From: an uncultured Clostridia bacterium
GTDB lineage: Bacteria; Bacillota; Clostridia; Christensenellales; UBA1242
DNA: 64,000 nucleotides
Direction: 5' to 3'
NCBI GenBank assembly: GCA_944362705.1
Contig: CALVTO010000001.1
Location: forward strand, 17,416-81,415
Shown here: piece by piece, positions 47,100-55,497 of the stretch
Position numbering within the stretch: the first letter of the stretch is position 1
How the letters are laid out: each line of letters opens with the position of its first letter
Position numbers and translations under genes: made by a program
The notes under the pieces: generated by a model
Database searches by the model: none
What the model saw: the letters and a program-made list of their open reading frames with translations, nothing else
Told to the model about the DNA's origin: nothing

Positions 47100-47690
47100 T
47101 TATTTCGAACGAGAACTTGTAACAATAGATTCTGTTTCAAATCCTGGCGTTAATTTTTTAAATAATGCGTTTATAAATTTTCTTTGTTTAAGAAAAAACA
47201 AATATTGTTCTTTAGATATAGCATACATTTCATCATTGTGAGTTGCGTTTAAGTTTTCATGTGTTTGTAATACATCGGTTTTGAAGAAAGGTGACGTTTC
47301 TATAGAAGTTAACAAGGTTTTAATGTCTTGATATCGTTTCATTGAATTAATCAATTCAGGGCGAACAGCGTACACGGTTTCGTTATTGCTAGATGCGCTT
47401 GTTATATTGGTTTTATAAAGTGGGTAAGTAGGGTCTTCGCTTTTTGTATCAAGATATTGTGCTATGGTGAATTTGGAAGAAACAAAACTCTGTTCAGAGG
47501 GTTGTGTAGAAGAAAGTGTGCTTACAGAAAATTTTGTTGATGCAATTAAGTGCAGTAAGGCTTCTGTTGTATGTATTTGCGTATGGTTAAATTTTGTTTC
47601 GAAAAGTAACATTTTTAATATATTGCCTACAATAAGCATATTGTAGGATGCGTATAAAATATTTTCTTTTGTTTCATTTGTTGGTTGCAT
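47100..47690 (-). CDS. Hypothetical protein (no recognisable domain)
   Basis: It has its own promoter and an AAGGAG RBS. The ORF is long and S/T-rich. Confidence 0.6.
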   Translation of the reverse strand: MQPTNETKENILYASYNMLIVGNILKMLLFETKFNHTQIHTTEALLHLIASTKFSVSTLSSTQPSEQSFVSSKFTIAQYLDTKSEDPTYPLYKTNITSASSNNETVYAVRPELINSMKRYQDIKTLLTSIETSPFFKTDVLQTHENLNATHNDEMYAISKEQYLFFLKQRKFINALFKKLTPGFETESIVTSSRSK

Positions 47691-47711
47691 AAAAAACTCC
47701 TTTATAATTCA

Positions 47712-47741
47712 ATTGTACCATGGTTTTAAAAGAAAGGTCAA
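47712..47741 (-). promoter_or_regulatory. Sigma-A promoter (TTGACC, 18 nt spacer, TACAAT) for the 47100-47690 gene
   Basis: The hexamers were read on the minus strand. Confidence 0.5.
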
Positions 47742-47754
47742 GGTAACAAAACAA

Positions 47755-47781
47755 AAATAAAAAACGCGTTTACACGCGTTT
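47755..47781 (-). terminator. Rho-independent terminator after the ABC gene
   Basis: Stem AACGCG/CGCGTT with a T run on the minus strand. Confidence 0.7.
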
Positions 47782-49471
47782 AAATTTTACTTGTTTCCGA
47801 TAAGGCTTTTACTAATTTTACTTTGCCATTATCTATTTTGTATATTGTGTCAGCTAAATTATCGTAGTTGTTTTTATGCGTAAAAAGAATAATGGTTCGT
47901 TTATAAGGGTCAGAAGAAGCAATAATATTTTGTAGTTTAATGTGAAAATCTTCCGATACATCTTCAGGATATTCGTAAATCATTAAAATTTTACATTTGC
48001 TAAGTGCAGCGCGAATTAAGCCAATCCAGAAAAGCGTTTCGCCGTTTTTAATATCACCAATAAGTGTTTCGTATCCTTGAGGTAAGGATTGTATAACGTT
48101 TGTTAAATTTAATACTTTTACGAGTTTTTGAATGTTATGAAAGTTGCTATGTGCCATCAGCAGATTTTCTTTTACAGTACCGTTGACAAACGATGGATGC
48201 GCAGAGCAATAGTCAATATGGTTTTTAAATGTTTTTTCATTATAATCGTATAAGTTTAAGTTATCTAGTAATATTTTACCGCTATTGGGTTGAATACGTC
48301 TGCGCAACATATTAAAAATTGCTCTTTTTCCACAACTGCGCTTACCTTTTACAATGTTTACGCCCTTCATGGTAAATAGCATATTCACATCTTTTAAATT
48401 AACGGCTTCGGGTTCTTCAGCTTTATAAAAAACGCTAATAAATGCTAAACTATACCCTTCAGCTTCTTTGTTAATATTACCATATTGAACCATTTGCTTA
48501 TCTGTTAAATTCAAAATTAAGTTAATTCTGTCTACATCTACGCGCATGTTCTCGGTACCATCGAATTTTGTGTATAATGTATTGAGTTTATCGGTACAAG
48601 AAGTTAGGTACGGAACAATAATTAAATATAAAGCAACATCTAATTGGCCTTTAGAAACCATAAATATTAAAAACGCAGTAATGGCGTAAATAACGACATT
48701 CCAAATAGCGTAATAAATATTCCCGCGGAAAGAATAAGTACGATAATATCTGGCATATTCTTTACTAAAATCATTTACGTGTTGCAAAAGGTTGGTTTCA
48801 TAAATTGCACCACCGTGCATTTCTTCAATAACAGATTTTCCAGAAATAATTTTAGAGTATTCTTTAAAAGAATTATCTTTCTTTTCGTAACGCGAGTTTA
48901 AAATTCTTCCCATGCGTTTATTGAGTGCGTTAATTACAAAAAAATTGACAACGCCTAATAAGGCAACAACAATGCCCGCATAAATATTGGTGGTAAAAAT
49001 AGCTGTAATAGCAATAATTACTTGCACCATATATTGAATAATAGACGCTATAACATCGGGGAATTCGCTTGCGTGCCCCATATTGCTTTGTGCAATATTG
49101 ATAATTTTTTCGGCAGAAAACTTTTTAAGGGTTTTAGATTCTACGCTTAAAATTTTACGATAAATTTTTGTAGAAATAGTTTTACGAATATGTATCAGTT
49201 GTTTCCCGTAAAAAATATATTCAATATGATAAAACACATTACGTAAAATAATGTCTAACAGTTCAATTGCTAACCAGAAAAAGGCGCCGTTCCAATCTTG
49301 ATTATATAGGCAGTTAATGGTTTTAGCTGCAAAAATAGTCATTAAAGCATACAAAACAGCGTATAAAATGTAAAAGAAAATTTGAAAAAACCAAATTTTC
49401 TTATCCGGCTCGCATAATGTATACCATCTTTTAAAAATATTATCTTTTTTCTTATTCACTACTTGTTCCAT
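47780..49471 (-). CDS. ABC exporter half-transporter (TMD-NBD) with a degenerate nucleotide-binding domain
   Basis: Six-TM exporter-type N-terminus. In the NBD, Walker A reads GKRSCGKRA, no LSGGQ is present (region NGETLFW) and Walker B reads ILMIYE (Asp to Tyr). The H-loop THK is retained. Confidence 0.7.
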   Translation of the reverse strand: MEQVVNKKKDNIFKRWYTLCEPDKKIWFFQIFFYILYAVLYALMTIFAAKTINCLYNQDWNGAFFWLAIELLDIILRNVFYHIEYIFYGKQLIHIRKTISTKIYRKILSVESKTLKKFSAEKIINIAQSNMGHASEFPDVIASIIQYMVQVIIAITAIFTTNIYAGIVVALLGVVNFFVINALNKRMGRILNSRYEKKDNSFKEYSKIISGKSVIEEMHGGAIYETNLLQHVNDFSKEYARYYRTYSFRGNIYYAIWNVVIYAITAFLIFMVSKGQLDVALYLIIVPYLTSCTDKLNTLYTKFDGTENMRVDVDRINLILNLTDKQMVQYGNINKEAEGYSLAFISVFYKAEEPEAVNLKDVNMLFTMKGVNIVKGKRSCGKRAIFNMLRRRIQPNSGKILLDNLNLYDYNEKTFKNHIDYCSAHPSFVNGTVKENLLMAHSNFHNIQKLVKVLNLTNVIQSLPQGYETLIGDIKNGETLFWIGLIRAALSKCKILMIYEYPEDVSEDFHIKLQNIIASSDPYKRTIILFTHKNNYDNLADTIYKIDNGKVKLVKALSETSKI

Positions 49472-49641
49472 AGTGTTTACTATAAGTGAAACTTGGCAGA
49501 ATAGCAAGCGTTTGTTTCATTTTGTCAAAGGAATTTATGTTTATTTGTTATTTTGTAGAAAATAAGGGTAAATAAAAACAGCTTTACGCAATGCTTTTTC
49601 GTGCATGCCTAACTGTTTTTATTAAAAAAAAATTTATTACG

Positions 49642-50076
49642 TTAAAAATACTTAGTATAACAAAGGGATTCTATATATCCTTGTTTTTTGCATAATGCAA
49701 CGCAGGCTTTACGTGAAGCGGTGGTTGTTAATTTCATAAAAGCACATTTTCTTTTTAAAGATTCTTGTTCGGCAAATTGTAATAATTGTTTACCTATGCC
49801 ATGGTTCTTGTAATTTTCTTCTACAATAAAAGACCATAATGTAGAGAAGGGAACAGTAGTTTCGGTAATATCTTGGTTAATCACCAATTGACAAAAACCA
49901 ACACACGTATTTTTGTAAATGGCTGAAATAAAAATATAATCTTTATTATTTTCTAGTTGTTTAAATTTTCTTTTCATTTTAGGTAAAAGCGTTTTATCAC
50001 CAAAAGCTTGTTCGTATATAAAAGCAATTTTTTCTAGGTCTTCAAATCTTGTTCTGCGAATGGTAACGTTTTTCAT
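49642..50076 (-). CDS. GNAT-family N-acetyltransferase
   Basis: The acetyl-CoA motif region is VEENYKNHGIGKQLLQFAE. The size is typical at 144 aa. Confidence 0.8.
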   Translation of the reverse strand: MKNVTIRRTRFEDLEKIAFIYEQAFGDKTLLPKMKRKFKQLENNKDYIFISAIYKNTCVGFCQLVINQDITETTVPFSTLWSFIVEENYKNHGIGKQLLQFAEQESLKRKCAFMKLTTTASRKACVALCKKQGYIESLCYTKYF

Positions 50077-50153
50077 AATATTCTCCTTATGTATACGTTT
50101 CGTATACTGAAAATTAAAAAAAAGCGTAAAGAAATTTTGTAACTATTAAGGAA

Positions 50154-50186
50154 TAAAAAAATACGTATGGCTACGTATTTTTTTTA
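50154..50186 (-). terminator. Bidirectional hairpin terminator after the bPH_2 gene
   Basis: ATACGTA-tggc-TACGTAT flanked by A7 and T8. Confidence 0.7.
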
Positions 50187-50187
50187 T

Positions 50188-50811
50188 TTACTCTTTGTTG
50201 TTTGATTTTTTTCTGTTTTCTATATTTTGTTTGATACCCTTTGTTTTCTTCTGGACGTAAATCGTTAGGTAGTACATATCGGTTTTTAAGTCATTGACAA
50301 TATCTTGTAGCATGTTACATACATGGTATGGGTCGGTTATGCAAAATAATATAGTTCTTTCTACTTTACTTACAATGTGAATATTACCCACCTTTAAAAT
50401 GCGGTTAATAAGTCCAACATTAAGATGAACAAGCTGAACATCTATGTAGTAAATACTTTTCACATCTACAAAAACACCTGATCGAATGATAATTCGTTTT
50501 GTGGTAAAAACATATTCCGTATTTTTATATTGCGCTGTTGACGTAATTATATTGCCAATCCAAATCCATAATGGTGTTAAATGCAAAACAAAAAACAAAA
50601 TGAAAATAATGAGAACTAATGTGCTAACTTGTGAGGCTGCGCCAGTTTTAATAAAAGCATAAATAATACAGCCATTAACCAAAACCCAAATGAGAACAAT
50701 AGGTGATAATTAAAGAATTTTCGACCAAATAAATACAAATTTTTTAGGCTTGCCTTGCCATAAAATTTTTTCATCGTTTTGAATTAGGTCTTTTATAGAA
50801 TTATGGTGCAT
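50188..50811 (-). pseudogene. bPH_2 (YdbS/YdbT-like) membrane PH-domain protein interrupted by an in-frame TAA at 50710-50712
   Basis: The ATG at 50811 gives MHHNSIKDLIQNDEKILWQGKPKKFVFIWSKIL, then TAA. The same frame continues as LSPIVLIWVLVNGC... into the 164-aa ORF that carries the PH-like core FTTKRIIIRSGVF. Confidence 0.7.
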
Positions 50812-50829
50812 TTCGTTAGAAAGATTTTT

Positions 50830-51825
50830 TTATTTTTGTCTTTTTTCATCATAACCTCGTCTTTGTTTTACATTGTTAAATATTTGAAAAAAATCTAAAC
50901 CGCGATCATGGTATGTATTTGTTAATTTTCCTGTTGGCAATAGTTTAATAGAATAAATTAAATTATTTTTTTCATCATCTATATCTTTGTGAATTTCAGT
51001 GCTTTTAAAAATGACATGTTGATGATATACCATGGCGGAAGAATACGCTTGGGGATTAAATTTTGCAGGATCTAATTGGATTTTTGTTCCTTCGGCAATT
51101 ACGTCTTTTATTATGCTTTGCAATACAGAACTTTCCATTAAATGACTTTTAGTAAATAGTGCAACGTCGGGAATGGTTTCGTGTTCTTTTGTAGAAGAAA
51201 TAGGGAAGAATCTAATTTGATCAACAATGGTTGCATAGTGTTTAATATATTTAAGCGCTTTTTCTGTATTGTCTATATAATTTTTCATTAAAACAACGCT
51301 TAACCATAATTGTTTACCTTGTTGGTGCAACATGTTTTTTATTTTAATAAGTTCTTTTTTACTTAATGAATCTATTTTCATTAAATTACTGTTTATTCTT
51401 TTATTCCAATGATGAATGGATATATTGACTGCGGTTATACAGGAATTTGCAAGTTTGTGCACAAAATCTTCGTCTCGTAGTTTGACTCCATTGGTAATAA
51501 TAGTTATTTCTGATAATTGTTGTTTATATTTTTTTAATTCATGTAATATTGGAAACAAGTTTTTGGAAATAGTAGGTTCTCCGCCTAATAAGACAACATT
51601 TTTTACGTTTAATTTGGTTATGGCTATTTTTATTTTTTGTTCTAAATGATCTATAATGTTCTCTTTTCTTAATTTACCTAGGCGTGCAACGCAAAAGGGG
51701 CATTTCCCATTGCAAGCATCTGTCATTTTAATGTGTAATCTTGTGCTTTTACCAATTTTATACTTTGTATTGAGAACGTCGATAGTATCATATGCAGAAT
51801 CGGTTAATGTTGTGTTTTCAATCAT
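50830..51825 (-). CDS. Radical SAM enzyme with a single CxxxCxxC cluster and no auxiliary-cluster cysteines (viperin/MoaA-like core)
   Basis: MTDACNGKCPFCVAR, VVLLGGEPT, ITIITNGVKL, NISIHH and QIRFFPI. Confidence 0.8.
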   Translation of the reverse strand: MIENTTLTDSAYDTIDVLNTKYKIGKSTRLHIKMTDACNGKCPFCVARLGKLRKENIIDHLEQKIKIAITKLNVKNVVLLGGEPTISKNLFPILHELKKYKQQLSEITIITNGVKLRDEDFVHKLANSCITAVNISIHHWNKRINSNLMKIDSLSKKELIKIKNMLHQQGKQLWLSVVLMKNYIDNTEKALKYIKHYATIVDQIRFFPISSTKEHETIPDVALFTKSHLMESSVLQSIIKDVIAEGTKIQLDPAKFNPQAYSSAMVYHQHVIFKSTEIHKDIDDEKNNLIYSIKLLPTGKLTNTYHDRGLDFFQIFNNVKQRRGYDEKRQK

Positions 51826-51838
51826 TTTTATGAAAATC

Positions 51839-52603
51839 CTATTTTTTATAATTTATTTTTTTTCGGAAACTTGTTTTTACAAATTTGCCTAAAGCAATTC
51901 GCTTGCACTCATTTTGCACTTCTTCAGGAGTCTTGTTGTATGTATCAACTAAAAACAAATTGTCATAATCTTGTAACGTATTGTAAGTATATAAGTATTT
52001 TTCTTGTAGGGATAATGCATTTTTATCAAACTCAGAAATTCTTTCTCTAGAAAAAACTCTTTTTATATGTTCTTGCTCATCGCTAACATATAAAAAAATG
52101 ACTTTGTGATTAGGGTTTTTTATTAAAAAAGACTCAACTGATTGAAGTATAAGCTGTTTATCATTTTGGTTCATTATTCTTGTAATATGTTCTACACAGC
52201 GATCGATGGTGATAATGCCATTTTCTGCCAACCCGTTTACGGTTGTTGTTTTCCCAGTAGCATCAGCTCCTTCAATGTACGTGTATGTTATTTGAATTGA
52301 ACCGTTTAAAAGATTGTCTACATTGAATAACGAATTATTTGTAACATTTAAAAAATCTTTATTTATAAAAATGCCGGAATCTGTTGGAATTAAATATAAA
52401 TCTATAAGATTTTTTATGTGTTGAATATAAAAAAATTGGTTTGTTTTTGGGTCAAGCCAAGTATCCGTTATTATTTCAAAAAACTTATTGTTTTTGTTAC
52501 TTTGTTGTACTGTTTTTTTGTCAATCAGGATTTTATCTGATAAAAACCTGTCGCTCAAATTTTTTTTCATACAAACGTATTTTGTAAAAATTTCATGCGT
52601 CAT
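51839..52603 (-). CDS. P-loop nucleotide kinase-like protein (thymidylate/deoxynucleoside-kinase-like Walker A) with an N-terminal domain of unknown function, about 105 aa
   Basis: YIEGADATGKTTTVNGL resembles the Tmk motif EGxDGxGKTT. The gap to the radical SAM gene is 13 nt. Confidence 0.6.
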   Translation of the reverse strand: MTHEIFTKYVCMKKNLSDRFLSDKILIDKKTVQQSNKNNKFFEIITDTWLDPKTNQFFYIQHIKNLIDLYLIPTDSGIFINKDFLNVTNNSLFNVDNLLNGSIQITYTYIEGADATGKTTTVNGLAENGIITIDRCVEHITRIMNQNDKQLILQSVESFLIKNPNHKVIFLYVSDEQEHIKRVFSRERISEFDKNALSLQEKYLYTYNTLQDYDNLFLVDTYNKTPEEVQNECKRIALGKFVKTSFRKKINYKK

Positions 52604-52609
52604 AGTTTT

Positions 52610-52638
52610 ATTGTAACATATTAAACATATTAAGGCAA
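52610..52638 (-). promoter_or_regulatory. Promoter (TTGCCT, 17 nt spacer, TACAAT) whose -10 ends 6 nt before the kinase ATG (leaderless candidate)
   Basis: The hexamers were read on the minus strand. No SD sequence is present. Confidence 0.45.
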
Positions 52639-52666
52639 TATATATAACGATACACAGTCATATTAA
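52617..52666. repeat. Three copies of CATATTAA (52617-24, 52626-33, 52659-66) in the divergent control region
   Basis: Read directly. Two tandem copies sit in the spacer of the minus-strand promoter. The third sits just upstream of the plus-strand -35. Confidence 0.7.
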
Positions 52667-52667
52667 G

Positions 52668-52696
52668 TTGCTAAAATACGTAATTTTTGTTATGAT
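52668..52696 (+). promoter_or_regulatory. Promoter (TTGCTA, 17 nt spacer, TATGAT) whose -10 ends 6 nt before the NTase ATG (leaderless candidate)
   Basis: The hexamers were read directly. No SD sequence is present. Confidence 0.45.
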
Positions 52697-52702
52697 TATG
52701 AC

Positions 52703-53482
52703 ATGAAACTAACAAATATAGATATTTATCATATTATTGATGAGTTTGTGCATATAAAAAAATACAAAAAAAGAGATGATGTTTTGGGAATCTTCTTTTA
52801 TGGCAGTGCGTTGTATGGCAATCATACAGAAGGTTCTGACATTGATTTACATATTATTACAACCAGTGCAAAAGATATTCGCGGAAATATTGTTTTGCAT
52901 AATACGCATGTGGAATATTTTGAGCGACCGTATAATGCTATTTTAAACCAAATGCAATATGAGAAAGAAACAAATCAAACAGTTATATTATCCATGCTTG
53001 GATACGGCAAAATTATATATGAAAAAAATGGCGCTTTAACTAAATTACAACAAACCATTAAAGCGAGTTATGCTGACTATAAGCCACAAGTTTTAATTTC
53101 AAAAAAAGAAGCTATTTTTAATTTTTACAAAATTTATATCAATATGCAACGATTGGAAAAATTGATGAATGTTGATGATGATGTTTTTTATTATATGTAT
53201 TATATCGTTTTAAACAACATAAAAAAATTTTACGAAAAAATGATGGGGTTGAGTACCGATATTTCTCAATATAAATTAAAAAGGTTTTATTTACATAATC
53301 AAGAGCAAGTGAATACATTTAAAACAATTCCGGCAAATGAATTTATACAAATATTTTTACAATGTGTTCCAATGCAACCTCAAGAAAAAATGTTGCATTG
53401 TTTGCAACAATTATTTACTTTCTGTACGAAAGATCTTGATTTTGATTTTACTAGCAATCATATTATTATGGAGAGAAAGTAA
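52703..53482 (+). CDS. Pol-beta-superfamily nucleotidyltransferase with a helical C-terminal domain (ANT/KNTase-like architecture)
   Basis: GIFFYGSALYGNHTEGSDIDLHIIT fits the G[SG]-x(9-13)-DxD motif. The length of 259 aa is similar to ANT(4')-type enzymes. Confidence 0.7.
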   Translation: MKLTNIDIYHIIDEFVHIKKYKKRDDVLGIFFYGSALYGNHTEGSDIDLHIITTSAKDIRGNIVLHNTHVEYFERPYNAILNQMQYEKETNQTVILSMLGYGKIIYEKNGALTKLQQTIKASYADYKPQVLISKKEAIFNFYKIYINMQRLEKLMNVDDDVFYYMYYIVLNNIKKFYEKMMGLSTDISQYKLKRFYLHNQEQVNTFKTIPANEFIQIFLQCVPMQPQEKMLHCLQQLFTFCTKDLDFDFTSNHIIMERK

Positions 53483-53484
53483 TT

Positions 53485-54321
53485 ATGAAAAAAATTCCTC
53501 GTGGAGAGTATCGAATTTCTATAACATCAGCTTGCAATATGAAGTGTGTGTATTGTCATAACGAAGGGCAGTCTTCGTTTGCACAATTGTCGCTTAATGA
53601 TATAGATTTACTCTTAGCAAATTCTTATGATTTAGGGTTAACATCTGTACGGCTTACAGGTGGAGAACCGCTCATTCATCCAGATATTATTGATATATGT
53701 AAACTAATTAAGCATAAGTATCATTTACAAGTTGGCATTAACACAAATTTAATTAAGTTTGATATTATACTTGAGTTGTTGAAAAATCATTTAATAGATA
53801 AGCTTGTAGTTGGTATGGATTATTACGATGGAAAGGTTTCAAAAAATTCGCCTGTAGGTATATCTTCAAAAATTATAAGACAAAATCTTTCATCTATTAA
53901 AAACATGCCTATATCTATTGCGGTAGATATGGTTTATACAAACAATAAAAATGATATAGATAAAATGATGAAATATTGTTTAAACAACGGGTTTGAAATA
54001 AAAGTACTTGAAGATATTGGAAATTTATCCGAAGAATATCATAAAGAGTTTATGTTGTTTGTGAAAAGTCTTGCTCAAAAATACGGAATTGAACTATACT
54101 CATCTAAAGAAGAATTTGACCAATTTAGAGGGTATAAAGGTAAAAAACGTGTGGCTTCTTTTTTTAACTCGCTTTGTTATGATAAAAAATGTGCGTTGTG
54201 TAAGAATATGCATTTAAGGGTTTCGGCGAAGGGAGTGCTTCATAGTTGTGCAATTAAAGAAGATGATGGTATATGTTTTAAAGGGGAAAGTGTAAGAAAT
54301 AATATTTTAAAAATGTTATAA
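53485..54321 (+). CDS. MoaA-like radical SAM enzyme (GTP 3',8-cyclase family-like) with C-terminal auxiliary Cys motif
   Basis: YRISITSACNMKCVYCHNEG and VRLTGGEPLIHPD. The C-terminal CALCKNMHLRVSAKGVLHSC resembles the MoaA CxxC-NRLRltadGkL-C region. Confidence 0.75.
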   Translation: MKKIPRGEYRISITSACNMKCVYCHNEGQSSFAQLSLNDIDLLLANSYDLGLTSVRLTGGEPLIHPDIIDICKLIKHKYHLQVGINTNLIKFDIILELLKNHLIDKLVVGMDYYDGKVSKNSPVGISSKIIRQNLSSIKNMPISIAVDMVYTNNKNDIDKMMKYCLNNGFEIKVLEDIGNLSEEYHKEFMLFVKSLAQKYGIELYSSKEEFDQFRGYKGKKRVASFFNSLCYDKKCALCKNMHLRVSAKGVLHSCAIKEDDGICFKGESVRNNILKML

Positions 54322-54336
54322 TACATAGTGAAAAAT

Positions 54337-54825
54337 ATGGATATATCAATAAAAAATAAAAATTGCAACTTTAAAGCAAAAGCGGTTGGGTTGCTGTGTG
54401 TTAAAAATAAATTATTATTAGTTCAAATGAGTGATGCTGGTTTTTTTGCTCTTCCAGGCGGACATATTCACATTGGCGAATCTTCCACTGATGCTGTTGT
54501 ACGAGAAATGAAGGAAGAGACACTACTTGACGTAAAAATTAAAGCACCTTTATGCATAATTGAGAATTTTTTTGATGGAAAAATGGGTAAGTATCATGAA
54601 ATAACGTTTTGTTATATTGTACAACTTTTAAATGAAAGCAATTTTAAAATGGAAGATTTTGTACGGCATGATATTGAAGATGGAAAACTTGATTTTAGAT
54701 GGTTTAGCATAGACGAATTACATAACGTGGATTTAAAACCTACTATTTTAAAAGAAAAAATTCTTGCACTAAACACACAATTTGAATTTTTAATTTCCAC
54801 AAAGCCATATCATGGTACAATGTAA
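54337..54825 (+). CDS. NUDIX hydrolase
   Basis: The Nudix box is GGHIHIGESSTDAVVREMKEETLL. An alternative GTG start lies at 54328. Confidence 0.85.
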   Translation: MDISIKNKNCNFKAKAVGLLCVKNKLLLVQMSDAGFFALPGGHIHIGESSTDAVVREMKEETLLDVKIKAPLCIIENFFDGKMGKYHEITFCYIVQLLNESNFKMEDFVRHDIEDGKLDFRWFSIDELHNVDLKPTILKEKILALNTQFEFLISTKPYHGTM

Positions 54826-54978
54826 AACATAAAATAAAACAAAACCATTTTAATGTATGCAAGCATTTTATAGGATTGCAAATGAATACTTTTTAAGCGG
54901 GTTTTTACATGCAAGAAGATGTTATAATCAAAATATAATATTTCATTTTCAATAGATAAATAATTTGAGTTTATAAAA

Positions 54979-55004
54979 ACCATGTGAGCGATCACATGGT
55001 TTTT
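54979..55004. terminator. Bidirectional hairpin terminator
   Basis: ACCATGTGA-gcga-TCACATGGT flanked by A5 and T5. Confidence 0.7.
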
Positions 55005-55082
55005 ATAAAAATAATTTTTTAAAGTTTTGATAATTTTATTTAAATGAATTACCTTCCAAGAAAGTTCTGATAATTTTTCTCT

Positions 55083-55220
55083 TTATCTTCTTTCTTTTTT
55101 TTCATTAGGATAATTATATACAGATTTTAAAGTTTTTGTGTCTGAGTCATAAATTTTATATTTTATTCCGCGTTTGTCATATAAAGGTGTTCTTAAATCA
55201 GTTATTACGAATTTTTTCAT
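55083..55220 (-). CDS. Small ORF (45 aa) with a strong RBS, below the ORF-track cutoff
   Basis: AAGGAG sits 6 nt before the ATG. The product is MKKFVITDLRTPLYDKRGIKYKIYDSDTKTLKSVYNYPNEKKERR. Confidence 0.35.
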   Translation of the reverse strand: MKKFVITDLRTPLYDKRGIKYKIYDSDTKTLKSVYNYPNEKKERR

Positions 55221-55282
55221 TTTAAACTCCTTAGTTATATTCCATTAGTTAAAATCAAAGAAATAATTTATAAAAGCGTGTC

Positions 55283-55330
55283 AAATACATTTATGATTGA
55301 AATTTATAAAAATAAAATACATTTATGATT
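55283..55330. repeat. Perfect 16-nt direct repeat AAATACATTTATGATT (55283-98 and 55315-30)
   Basis: Read directly. It lies between the small ORF and the tRNA terminator. Confidence 0.8.
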
Positions 55331-55362
55331 AAAAAATATAAAACATGATGCATCGACTTTTA

Positions 55363-55397
55363 TATAAAAAATATATCCATACCACAATGGTATGGAT
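55363..55397 (-). terminator. Rho-independent terminator of tRNA-Ser
   Basis: Stem ATCCATACC/GGTATGGAT with a T run on the minus strand. Confidence 0.7.
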
Positions 55398-55409
55398 GGT
55401 TAAGTTTAT

Positions 55410-55497
55410 TGGCGGAGAGAGAGGGATTTGAACCCTCGGAACATTTCTGTTCACTTGTTTTCGAGACAAGCACGTTCGACCACTCCGACATCTCTCC
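55410..55497 (-). tRNA. tRNA-Ser(CGA), class II with a long variable arm and an encoded CCA
   Basis: The minus strand reads GGAGAGA...CTTGT-CTCGAAA-ACAAG...GAACAgaaaTGTTC...GAGGGTTCAAATCCCTC-TCTCTCC-G-CCA. Confidence 0.9.

Follow-up and report, generated by a model that had tools for sequence, protein, structure and literature searches.

Which product could call for two radical S-adenosylmethionine (SAM) enzymes, a Tmk-like P-loop kinase, a pol-beta-type nucleotidyltransferase (NTase) and a NUDIX hydrolase, all encoded within less than 5 kb? This question is raised by two operons that diverge from a common control region in an uncultured Clostridia bacterium, within a 64,000-nucleotide stretch of contig CALVTO010000001.1 (assembly GCA_944362705.1, positions 17,416 to 81,415 of the forward strand). 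We call the whole stretch the window, and all coordinates refer to it unless a locus is named. An original prediction had described here a six-gene nucleotide-chemistry cassette that also counted a PH-domain membrane protein (bPH_2), and had offered three readings: an antiviral system, a small nucleoside-antibiotic or cofactor pathway, or a nucleotide-signal generator with a membrane effector. We show that the cassette consists of five genes built around a conserved core of the NTase, one radical SAM enzyme (rSAM2) and the NUDIX hydrolase. We give about even credence to the view that the operon pair encodes one pathway dedicated to a modified nucleotide, or else to a small molecule borne by a nucleotide handle.

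Layout of the cassette

Coordinates were taken from the open reading frame (ORF) list of the window, domain calls from Pfam, curated families from NCBIfam and defence matches from PADLOC-DB 2.0. The five genes and the region between the two operons are as follows.

50830-51825, minus strand: rSAM1, a radical SAM enzyme with a single cluster, 331 amino acids
51839-52603, minus strand: Tmk-like P-loop kinase, 254 amino acids
52604-52702, no strand: divergent intergenic region of 99 nucleotides, with one promoter-like site per direction
52703-53482, plus strand: NTase, a pol-beta-type nucleotidyltransferase with a C-terminal helical domain, 259 amino acids
53485-54321, plus strand: rSAM2, a two-cluster radical SAM enzyme derived from MoaA, at the centre of the conserved module, 278 amino acids
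54328-54825, plus strand: NUDIX hydrolase, 165 amino acids, starting at GTG 54328 or ATG 54337

All six ORFs of the original prediction were reproduced in the ORF list at the coordinates it had given, and the motifs it had quoted were all present: YIEGADATGKTTT in the kinase, CNGKCPFC in rSAM1 and GS..DIDL in the NTase. Its spacings were also recovered (13 nucleotides between kinase and rSAM1, 2 between NTase and rSAM2, 6-15 between rSAM2 and NUDIX, 99 in the divergent region), except that a bPH_2 gene starting 18 nucleotides after rSAM1 could not be maintained, as that frame carries an in-frame TAA. Pfam returned the domain families that had been named, Radical_SAM twice, Polbeta/NTP_transf_2, NUDIX and bPH_2; Radical_SAM, Polbeta/NTP_transf_2 and NUDIX passed their cut-offs, whereas the kinase gave only sub-threshold matches to Thymidylate_kin and AAA_28. 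The catalytic motifs of the cassette are all intact.

The NTase, rSAM2 and NUDIX genes form a conserved core

Homologues of rSAM2 numbered more than 190, at 36-73% identity. A scan of 185,579 species genomes with the rSAM2 family alignment and two peptide patterns yielded 32 loci (L011-L042) at 35-74% identity, after which identity dropped to that of archaeal MoaA (about 24%); the family is possibly undercounted, because the scan relied on two peptide patterns. All 32 loci came from uncultured metagenome-assembled genomes (MAGs) and the source, where recorded, was the animal or human gut. Nearly all were labelled Clostridia, Bacilli or 'Tenericutes', with the caution that most loci come from MAGs, for which the taxonomic assignment may not be reliable (Pseudonocardiaceae and Muribaculaceae are each the label of one locus). 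rSAM1 had only five close homologues among 5.8 billion proteins (66-99% identity), beyond which the scores fell to E = 1e-13.

The original prediction stood or fell with the co-occurrence of these genes outside this genome, and such co-occurrence was found. The contigs of three rSAM1 relatives (L001, L002 and L003) carried all five genes in the same divergent order, with NTase, rSAM2 and NUDIX on one arm and kinase and rSAM1 on the other, as did L011 and L041, two species representatives recovered by the genome scan. The five-gene unit is thus present in five other loci, in at least four different neighbourhoods, at 50-77% protein identity and with differing flanks: a serine recombinase and helix-turn-helix (HTH) genes in L001, a type II-A Cas9 locus in L002, Ppx-GppA, SNF2 helicase and HD genes in L003, and an HTH/ImmA-like pair with a Dcm methylase in L041.

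The NTase-rSAM2-NUDIX core reached much further. By tblastn and ORF clustering of L004-L042, about 27 of the 36 related loci had it, and its gene arrangements numbered at least seven; in about 27 loci the NTase gene immediately preceded rSAM2, which in most of these was immediately followed by NUDIX. The core, in some cases without NUDIX, was seen in L004, L012, L024, L028 and L037-39/L099-100, together with a lineage of 16 species-level loci. In that lineage it occupies one syntenic site, in the order TraG-like, AAA, YlbF, NTase, rSAM2, NUDIX, a protein of about 250 amino acids and a sigma factor. Within-lineage identities (rSAM2 74-100%, NTase 71-99%, NUDIX 46-100%) point to purifying selection. 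The kinase stood beside NTase-rSAM2 in four arrangements (the five-gene unit, divergently in L012, as first gene in L028 and as last gene in L037-39), and both kinase loci from a metagenome scan carried NTase-rSAM2-NUDIX with the kinase as last gene. rSAM1 was present in no related locus outside the window's own clade. The two arms are not equal partners: the NTase, rSAM2 and NUDIX genes stay together through inheritance and rearrangement, the Tmk-like kinase often joins them as a fourth member, and rSAM1 was added late, in the window's clade.

In three loci (L033-35), the partners of rSAM2 were replaced by an APH-family kinase, a HIT-family protein and a DUF1919 protein; such replacement by analogous enzymes (APH-family kinase and HIT-family protein) is as expected for a pathway. 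In four others (L013, L022, L025 and L026), rSAM2 stood with a YcaO protein, a C39-like peptidase protein and a NUDIX-peptidase_S51 fusion.

Among strains with an identical tyrosyl-tRNA synthetase or TMEM164 gene, the cassette was present in every contig that reached the site, and no same-species strain lacking it was found among those contigs. Plasmid and phage collections held no family member, only MoaA-level matches at about 25% identity.

Several candidate relationships were rejected. The 440-amino-acid call in L001 that would fuse rSAM2 to NUDIX is a gene-caller artefact, because TGA is used as a stop in these genomes and an in-frame TGA precedes a ribosome-binding-site-like GAGGAAAA and an ATG. 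The 251-amino-acid gene product encoded after NUDIX in the lineage of 16 loci is not a diverged kinase, having an N-terminal hydrophobic segment like a membrane anchor or signal and no P-loop. An HHDLDI motif is present in a 332-amino-acid protein encoded ahead of rSAM2 in loci of the L026 type, but at an hhalign probability of 0.3% homology to the NTase is not supported. A phage origin or a DNA-hypermodification toolkit was likewise dismissed: a scan of IMG/VR with the rSAM2 alignment gave one unrelated high-G+C contig without partner genes, the kinase scan of IMG/VR gave nothing, and PHROGs gave generic matches only.

Some of these loci are of note in their own right. The high-G+C IMG/VR contig (L097:10001-10840) encodes an rSAM2-like protein of 35% identity over its full length, with a 528-amino-acid protein downstream and without NTase, NUDIX or kinase alongside. 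In L026:2172-9891, and likewise in L013, L022 and L025 (Bacilli/'Tenericutes' MAGs), rSAM2 is followed by the NUDIX-peptidase_S51 fusion and preceded by a RelA/SpoT-like protein (recognised by eye), a 545-amino-acid protein with a C39-like peptidase domain, a 111-amino-acid protein, YcaO and the 332-amino-acid protein. In L024:85-9688, on a low-G+C contig labelled Muribaculaceae, an rSAM2 homologue and its NTase stand at the end of a different cluster; by eye from translations, this comprises a SPASM radical SAM enzyme, a 292-amino-acid protein, a second radical SAM enzyme, a TetM/EF-G-like GTPase (647 amino acids), an aminopeptidase-like protein (M29/PepS-like), a GNAT-like protein and a 417-amino-acid protein; the whole could be an antibiotic cluster that includes a gene for ribosome protection.

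In a CAG:389-like Clostridium sp. lineage, the rSAM2 homologue carries one extra C at the SAM-binding motif (R-L-T-[C]-G-G-E-P), at about 8150-8175 of L037 and L038, 8160-8180 of L039 and 4660-4680 of L099/L100. The DNA reads ACT C GGA GGA GAA or ACA C GGA GGA GAG, with both halves open, and is conserved in three diverged sequences; in the zero frame it runs into the arginine codons CGG AGG AGA, presumably rare in A+T-rich genomes, and a Shine-Dalgarno-like GGAGG. Instead of recent decay, the extra C could reflect a split gene or programmed +1 frameshifting.

rSAM2 is a divergent offshoot of archaeal-type MoaA

rSAM2 has the motifs CNMKCVYCHNEG and GGEP and a family-specific loop, DY(F/Y)D..SKxSPxGxSS. 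Across 24 sequences, C17, C21, C24, C239 and C255 are invariant and C236 is conserved in at least 90%; C17/C21/C24 and C236/C239/C255 align to C24/C28/C31 and C261/C264/C278 of MoaA. The protein aligns over its full length to Staphylococcus aureus MoaA (1tv7), and the equivalents of MoaA R17, R71 and R268, which hold GTP in that enzyme, are invariant. The CHNEG motif is common to archaeal MoaA and AbmM. In the AlphaFold 2 (AF2) model (mean predicted local confidence, pLDDT, 88.8), the best Foldseek match was MoaA, at a template-modelling (TM) score of 0.74, followed by AbmM (8wm2), SuiB, BlsE and viperin, with SuiB and SkfB among the top matches at TM about 0.65.

rSAM2 did not, however, group with bona fide MoaA. 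It scored 116.2, 110.6 and 105.9 bits with the NCBIfam MoaA models, for which the cut-offs are 325.25 (TIGR02668), 231 and 284, and it formed a separate block in the genome scan, at about 24% identity to archaeal MoaA. MoaA needs a C-terminal Gly-Gly tail for activity; this tail is present in none of 24 rSAM2 family members, and the window protein ends in NNILKML. As the original prediction had remarked, no molybdopterin genes are nearby: there were no molybdenum cofactor (Moco) genes within about 10 kb on either side in the window's species, nor in the 36 related loci. rSAM2 is thus a divergent offshoot of archaeal-type MoaA that has kept the radical SAM cluster, the auxiliary cluster and the equivalents of the GTP-holding arginines.

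The partner enzymes

The NTase matched Pfam Polbeta (32.5 bits) and NTP_transf_2 (27.6 bits), and G34-S35 and S45-D46-x-D48 were invariant in its family. Its AF2 model (pLDDT 84) shows a pol-beta domain followed by a helical C-terminal domain. Foldseek against the PDB returned 3c18, ANT(4')/KNTase, LinB, ANT(6) and AadA at E-values of 1e-8 to 1e-5, with TM of at most 0.59 (entries 3c18, 6un8, 1kny, 4ebj, 3jyy and 8vxb at E 1e-8 to 2e-4). The predicted fold is therefore that of enzymes that place a nucleoside monophosphate (NMP) on a small-molecule hydroxyl.

The kinase has an invariant P-loop EGxDGxGKTT, an invariant D133-R134 motif and, in a LID-like segment, the invariant residues R181, R185 and D192; E110, G111, D113, G116, K117, T119, D133, R134, R181 and R185 are invariant in 11 sequences, and we take these residues to correspond to the Tmk motifs (P-loop EGxDGxGK[ST]T, DR(Y) and an arginine-rich LID). 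The protein nevertheless falls below the cut-offs for deoxythymidine monophosphate kinase, with 22.8 bits against 83.25 for TIGR00041 (DTMP_kinase) and 18.3 against 27 for Pfam Thymidylate_kin. Its family is rare, with 66 representatives at E <= 1e-3 among 1.84 billion and no Tmk among these 66, and it has no model in the libraries searched. None of ten longer family members reached a Pfam cut-off, no informative domain fusion was seen among the longer members, and sequence searches of the PDB with kinase and NTase gave marginal matches only.

The NUDIX hydrolase scored 50.8 bits with Pfam, against a cut-off of 21.1. The Nudix box GX5EX7REUXEEXGU is intact, its final G being Leu in the window protein, and G44, G45, E51, R59, E60, E63 and E64 are invariant in 17 orthologues. 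The best solved relative, 2pqv, is uncharacterised, and neither NCBIfam nor the solved relatives allowed a specific subfamily to be assigned.

rSAM1 carries CX3CX2C at C37/C41/C44, GGEP and ITNG, and scored 68.9 bits with Pfam Radical_SAM. Its best NCBIfam matches were MoaA (73.4 bits, cut-off 284) and viperin_w_prok (53.8 bits, cut-off 180). Homology of its core to the rSAM2 family is confined to residues 30-193 (hhalign probability 97%), whereas the C-terminal third, about 135 amino acids, is cysteine-free and unrelated to rSAM2. No SPASM domain and no auxiliary-cluster cysteines were found in rSAM1 and no conserved precursor ORF lies beside it, all of which argues against a peptide-modifying enzyme with a nearby precursor, one of the outcomes the original prediction had foreseen as fatal to its claim.

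In P0003, an rSAM1 orthologue cluster of 10 member sequences, Ser takes the place of the first CX3CX2C cysteine, at the column of C37 in the window (MTDASNARCPFC); unless it is a sequencing error, this substitution would disable the radical SAM cluster.

bPH_2 and other neighbours of the cassette

The neighbouring features are listed below.

50188-50682, minus strand: bPH_2, 164 amino acids, Pfam bPH_2
52610-52638, minus strand (read 52638-52610): promoter-like site, TTGCCT-17-TACAAT with TG
52668-52696, plus strand: promoter-like site, TTGCTA-17-TATGAT with TG
54970-55009, plus strand: terminator-like hairpin, an 18-bp stem followed by a T-rich tail, which closes the plus-strand operon
55410-55497, minus strand: tRNA-Ser(cga), neighbour of the cassette

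The bPH_2 frame that starts 18 nucleotides after rSAM1 (50811) contains an in-frame TAA at 50710-50712, so that its open parts are a 33-codon stub and a 164-codon ORF starting at TTG. The same 33/164-amino-acid split was present in other strains of the window's species, and bPH_2 did not adjoin the cassette in any other genome examined. The original six-gene unit is thereby reduced to five genes. Given its interruption and lack of co-conservation, bPH_2 was rejected as an effector, and the reading of the NTase as a signal generator with a PH membrane effector fails on both of its parts, because the NTase fold is of the KNTase/ANT type and not that of cGAS/CD-NTase.

The bPH_2 gene (YdbS/YdbT-like; 50188-50811, minus strand) carries the stub MHHNSIKDLIQNDEKILWQGKPKKFVFIWSKIL in the same frame as the 164-codon ORF, and may be a pseudogene or may be re-initiated at TTG 50682.

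Nor were the GNAT, ABC transporter and 196-amino-acid proteins of the window's flanks encoded with the cassette elsewhere, by tblastn and ORF clustering of related loci. A gene for a Wzy_C protein and a GalU-like gene also adjoin the cassette in the window. The ABC exporter in the low-G+C block (47780-49507, minus strand) gave a partial ABC_tran match (profile positions 1-97 of 137) and has a Walker-A-like GKRSCGKRA without the usual Ser/Thr; it may be a degenerate ATPase. It is not co-conserved with the cassette.

Composition and transcription signals

The G+C content of the cassette is 0.285, against a window median of 0.353, which makes it the lowest 4.6-kb stretch in the window; the surrounding low-G+C block spans about 47100-55400 and is adjoined by tRNA-Ser(cga), in agreement with the AT-rich island beside a tRNA gene noticed earlier. 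Integration at this tRNA was considered and rejected, as neither a tRNA-derived direct repeat or att repeat nor an integrase was found. An Rfam search for regulatory RNA gave the tRNA as its sole match.

The two promoter-like sites are consensus matches only, and sites in the 99-nucleotide region are no more numerous than in shuffled sequence. Their TG-extended -10 boxes end 6-7 nucleotides before the ATGs at 52603 and 52703, and no Shine-Dalgarno sequence is visible ahead of either ATG. Since the -10 boxes end so close to the starts and no Shine-Dalgarno is seen, both divergent operons may be transcribed as leaderless or near-leaderless mRNAs. Between the cassette terminator and the 3' end of tRNA-Ser lie a 29-nucleotide tandem direct repeat (two copies, 90% identical, 32-nucleotide spacing; 55283-55343) and a bidirectional hairpin (55374-55398).

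A candidate pathway and its alternatives

How might the five proteins work together? In the proposed pathway, the Tmk-like kinase would phosphorylate an NMP-like precursor and thus open the pathway. rSAM2 would bind a nucleotide at its auxiliary cluster, where the 5'-deoxyadenosyl radical would take a hydrogen from the ribose to give a rearranged or substituted nucleotide, and the NTase would install, or use, a nucleotidyl group on the intermediate. NUDIX would cut a diphosphate linkage, either to release the product or to destroy a toxic triphosphate for self-protection, as ThmC does in the 4'-thiothymidine cluster. In the window's clade only, rSAM1 would add a second radical step. The proposal fixes no order for the kinase, rSAM2, NTase and NUDIX steps. 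Gene linkage, motif integrity and folds were observed directly; the steps themselves we infer.

A nucleotide-radical pathway appears the most economical account because the closest solved relatives of rSAM2 on this view (MoaA, AbmM, BlsE and viperin) all act on nucleotides or nucleosides, and because its partners are an NMP-kinase-like protein, an NMP transferase and a diphosphate hydrolase. Several points weigh against it. The equivalents of MoaA K69, N124 and K163, which are GTP-contact positions, are not conserved in the rSAM2 family, so that its substrate need not be GTP or even a nucleoside triphosphate. KNTase-like NTases normally act on aminoglycosides or lincosamides and not on nucleotides, although the constant linkage to rSAM2 argues for another acceptor. 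The N-terminal part of the kinase, about 100 amino acids, has no domain assignment, and the rSAM2 homologues beside YcaO and a C39-like peptidase, or beside a SPASM radical SAM enzyme, fit peptide chemistry. All family assignments are at superfamily level only.

Viperin-type antiviral defence would have the radical SAM enzyme(s) make a chain-terminating or toxic nucleotide analogue on infection, with the kinase supplying the triphosphate substrate and NUDIX limiting self-poisoning. The pVip (prokaryotic viperin) models are the sole PADLOC matches of rSAM1 and rSAM2, and PADLOC holds a separate model for kinase-associated viperins; the cassette has the lowest G+C of the window; and the regions that hold the five-gene form are variable and close to genes of defence or mobility (Cas9 in L002, serine recombinase and HTH in L001, the HTH/ImmA-like pair and Dcm methylase in L041, the SNF2 helicase and HD protein in L003). 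Yet neither enzyme reaches the cut-off of the curated viperin model (53.8 and 34 bits against 180), and in 16 species-level loci the trio is stably inherited at a single syntenic position on the chromosome, surrounded by genes of housekeeping and sporulation type, unlike patchy defence genes. The presence of the cassette in every site-reaching contig of the window's species, the absence of family members from the plasmid and phage collections and the lack of an att repeat or integrase at the tRNA speak in the same direction, and we rate antiviral defence as unlikely.

That the trio is inherited vertically, with its neighbourhood conserved throughout a Clostridia lineage of genus or family rank, would suit instead a lineage-specific housekeeping function: a nucleotide-activated envelope block, a cofactor, or RNA or nucleotide-pool modification or repair, in which the NTase and kinase would activate a small alcohol or sugar and rSAM2 would tailor it. 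APH-fold anomeric sugar/choline kinases and HIT-fold sugar-1-phosphate nucleotidyltransferases build activated precursors, and it is an APH-family kinase and a HIT-family protein, with DUF1919, that replace the partners in L033-35; Wzy_C and a GalU-like gene adjoin the cassette in the window. The family is very rare for such a function (about 32 of 185,579 species representatives in the two-pattern scan), the version of the window's clade is differently flanked in every genome, and the kinase motifs are of the NMP-kinase (Tmk) type and not of the sugar-kinase type, which leaves housekeeping, in our judgement, improbable too.

The structural likeness of rSAM2 to SuiB and SkfB (TM about 0.65) and its place beside YcaO and a C39-like peptidase in L013, L022, L025 and L026, and near a SPASM radical SAM enzyme in L024, would be expected if the radical SAM enzymes cross-linked or modified a ribosomally synthesised and post-translationally modified peptide (RiPP). 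We nevertheless consider a RiPP cluster very improbable. The original prediction had noticed no obvious RiPP precursor nearby, and indeed there is no conserved small ORF in or beside the cassette, where the small ORFs are limited to an overlapping frame and the stub left by the interruption of bPH_2; a 51-amino-acid ORF of the large Clostridia lineage encodes a charged, cysteine-free protein. rSAM2 has just 278 amino acids, with no RiPP recognition element and no SPASM domain by Pfam and NCBIfam, rSAM1 lacks C-terminal cysteines, and the constant partners are nucleotide enzymes. It is more improbable still that rSAM2 is simply the organism's MoaA for the molybdenum cofactor, with unrelated neighbours. 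MoaA models are its best NCBIfam matches and MoaA its best full-length match among solved structures, but the scores (116, 110.6 and 105.9 bits against 325, 231 and 284), the identity of about 24% to archaeal MoaA, the missing Gly-Gly and neighbours that are conserved in more than 30 loci and are never Moco genes all speak against it.

Returning to a dedicated nucleotide pathway, one specific form of it can be put forward tentatively: rSAM2, the KNTase-like NTase and NUDIX would make a new modified nucleotide or nucleoside in uncultured gut Firmicutes, with the kinase and rSAM1 extending the chemistry, the product being either an antiviral or antibacterial nucleoside analogue or the result of radical chemistry on a transiently nucleotidylated substrate. 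The product could serve as an antiviral nucleotide, as a nucleoside with antimicrobial action or as a metabolite specific to the lineage; the present data fit the antiviral and the nucleoside-antibiotic or cofactor readings alike.

The nucleotide-remodelling radical SAM enzymes MoaA, viperin, AbmM and ThmA have each brought new chemistry and antiviral or antibiotic leads. The present cassette is centred on an uncharacterised MoaA offshoot with fixed nucleotide-handling partners across many uncultured Firmicutes of the animal and human gut and, with three to five genes in less than 5 kb, is small enough for direct synthesis and testing. A defined product would give functions to the rSAM2 family, to the Tmk-like kinase family and to rSAM1, for which the libraries searched hold no family-specific model, and would reveal whether commensals of the gut produce nucleoside analogues active against phages or neighbouring bacteria.

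Comparison with known systems

The original prediction had recognised no named system in this gene combination, and the wider searches agree. Every NCBIfam match of the cassette lies far below its curated cut-off, PADLOC gave weak superfamily-level matches only (pVip, PDC-S07, PDC-S09 and mad8, with none for bPH_2), and full-text literature searches found no description of the combination. The combination and three of its families (rSAM2, the Tmk-like kinase and rSAM1) are thus undescribed in the libraries and papers searched. By analogy, the logic of the cassette resembles that of known nucleotide-modifying radical SAM cassettes, although it is a member of none.

The nearest relative of rSAM2 is archaeal-type MoaA (TIGR02668). 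Both share CX3CX2C-HNEG, GGEP, a full-length alignment, three auxiliary cysteines and the R17/R71/R268 equivalents, and MoaA is the best structural match (TM 0.74). They differ in the auxiliary cysteine spacing (CX2CX15C in rSAM2, CX2CX13C in MoaA); rSAM2 moreover reaches only a third of the curated cut-off, lacks Gly-Gly, does not conserve the K69/N124/K163 equivalents and has the SKxSPxGxSS loop, and its partners are NTase, NUDIX and kinase instead of MoaC and other Moco genes.

In gene logic, the cassette resembles AbmM/AbmG and ThmABC, which combine a radical SAM enzyme that works on a nucleotide with a kinase for nucleosides or nucleotides and a protective nucleotide pyrophosphatase. AbmM (8wm2) ranks second among the sequence matches of rSAM2 and third among its structural matches, but the match (63-67 bits over the first 95 residues, TM 0.62) is weaker than the full-length match of MoaA, with about 20% overall identity and no significant alignment of the C-terminal half. 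The AbmM and ThmABC clusters have neither a pol-beta NTase nor a second radical SAM enzyme, and their hosts are actinomycetes and gamma-proteobacteria, not gut Firmicutes. In the ThmABC 4'-thiothymidine cluster, the radical SAM enzyme stands with a nucleoside kinase and a self-resistance NTPase, and ThmA is reported to be unrelated to AbmM (PMC12691670).

The kinase-rSAM1 arm recalls the pairs of pVip and nucleotide kinase, in that the radical SAM enzyme lies directly downstream of an NMP-kinase-like gene, and rSAM1 is like pVips in its single cluster, its C-terminal extension and its weak PADLOC pVip match (60.5 bits; 42.1 for rSAM2; radical SAM core only). Unlike pVips, it does not satisfy the curated viperin model NF038283 (viperin_w_prok: 53.8 bits for rSAM1 and 34 for rSAM2, cut-off 180), and it is always accompanied by the NTase-rSAM2-NUDIX module. 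We also take the sequence before its first cluster cysteine to be MoaA-like and not the N-x-H context of viperins.

The NTase shares with KNTase/ANT(4'), LinB and ANT(6) the two-domain architecture and the GS...DxD catalytic motif. Identity to these enzymes is 11-16% and TM 0.4-0.59, its PDB relatives are found by profile only at E > 0.01, and it is always coupled to a radical SAM enzyme, unlike the resistance enzymes. A precedent for such coupling is offered by fosfomycin biosynthesis, in which Fom1, Fom3 and FomD provide a transient cytidylylation, a radical SAM step and a hydrolase that then removes cytidine monophosphate (PMC8158854). The enzyme families all differ: Fom1 contains a cytidylyltransferase domain, Fom3 belongs to the class B radical SAM methylases that depend on B12, and the hydrolase FomD lies outside the NUDIX family. 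Phosphonate genes are absent from the cassette; the chemical logic nevertheless fits the order NTase, radical SAM enzyme, NUDIX seen in the conserved core.

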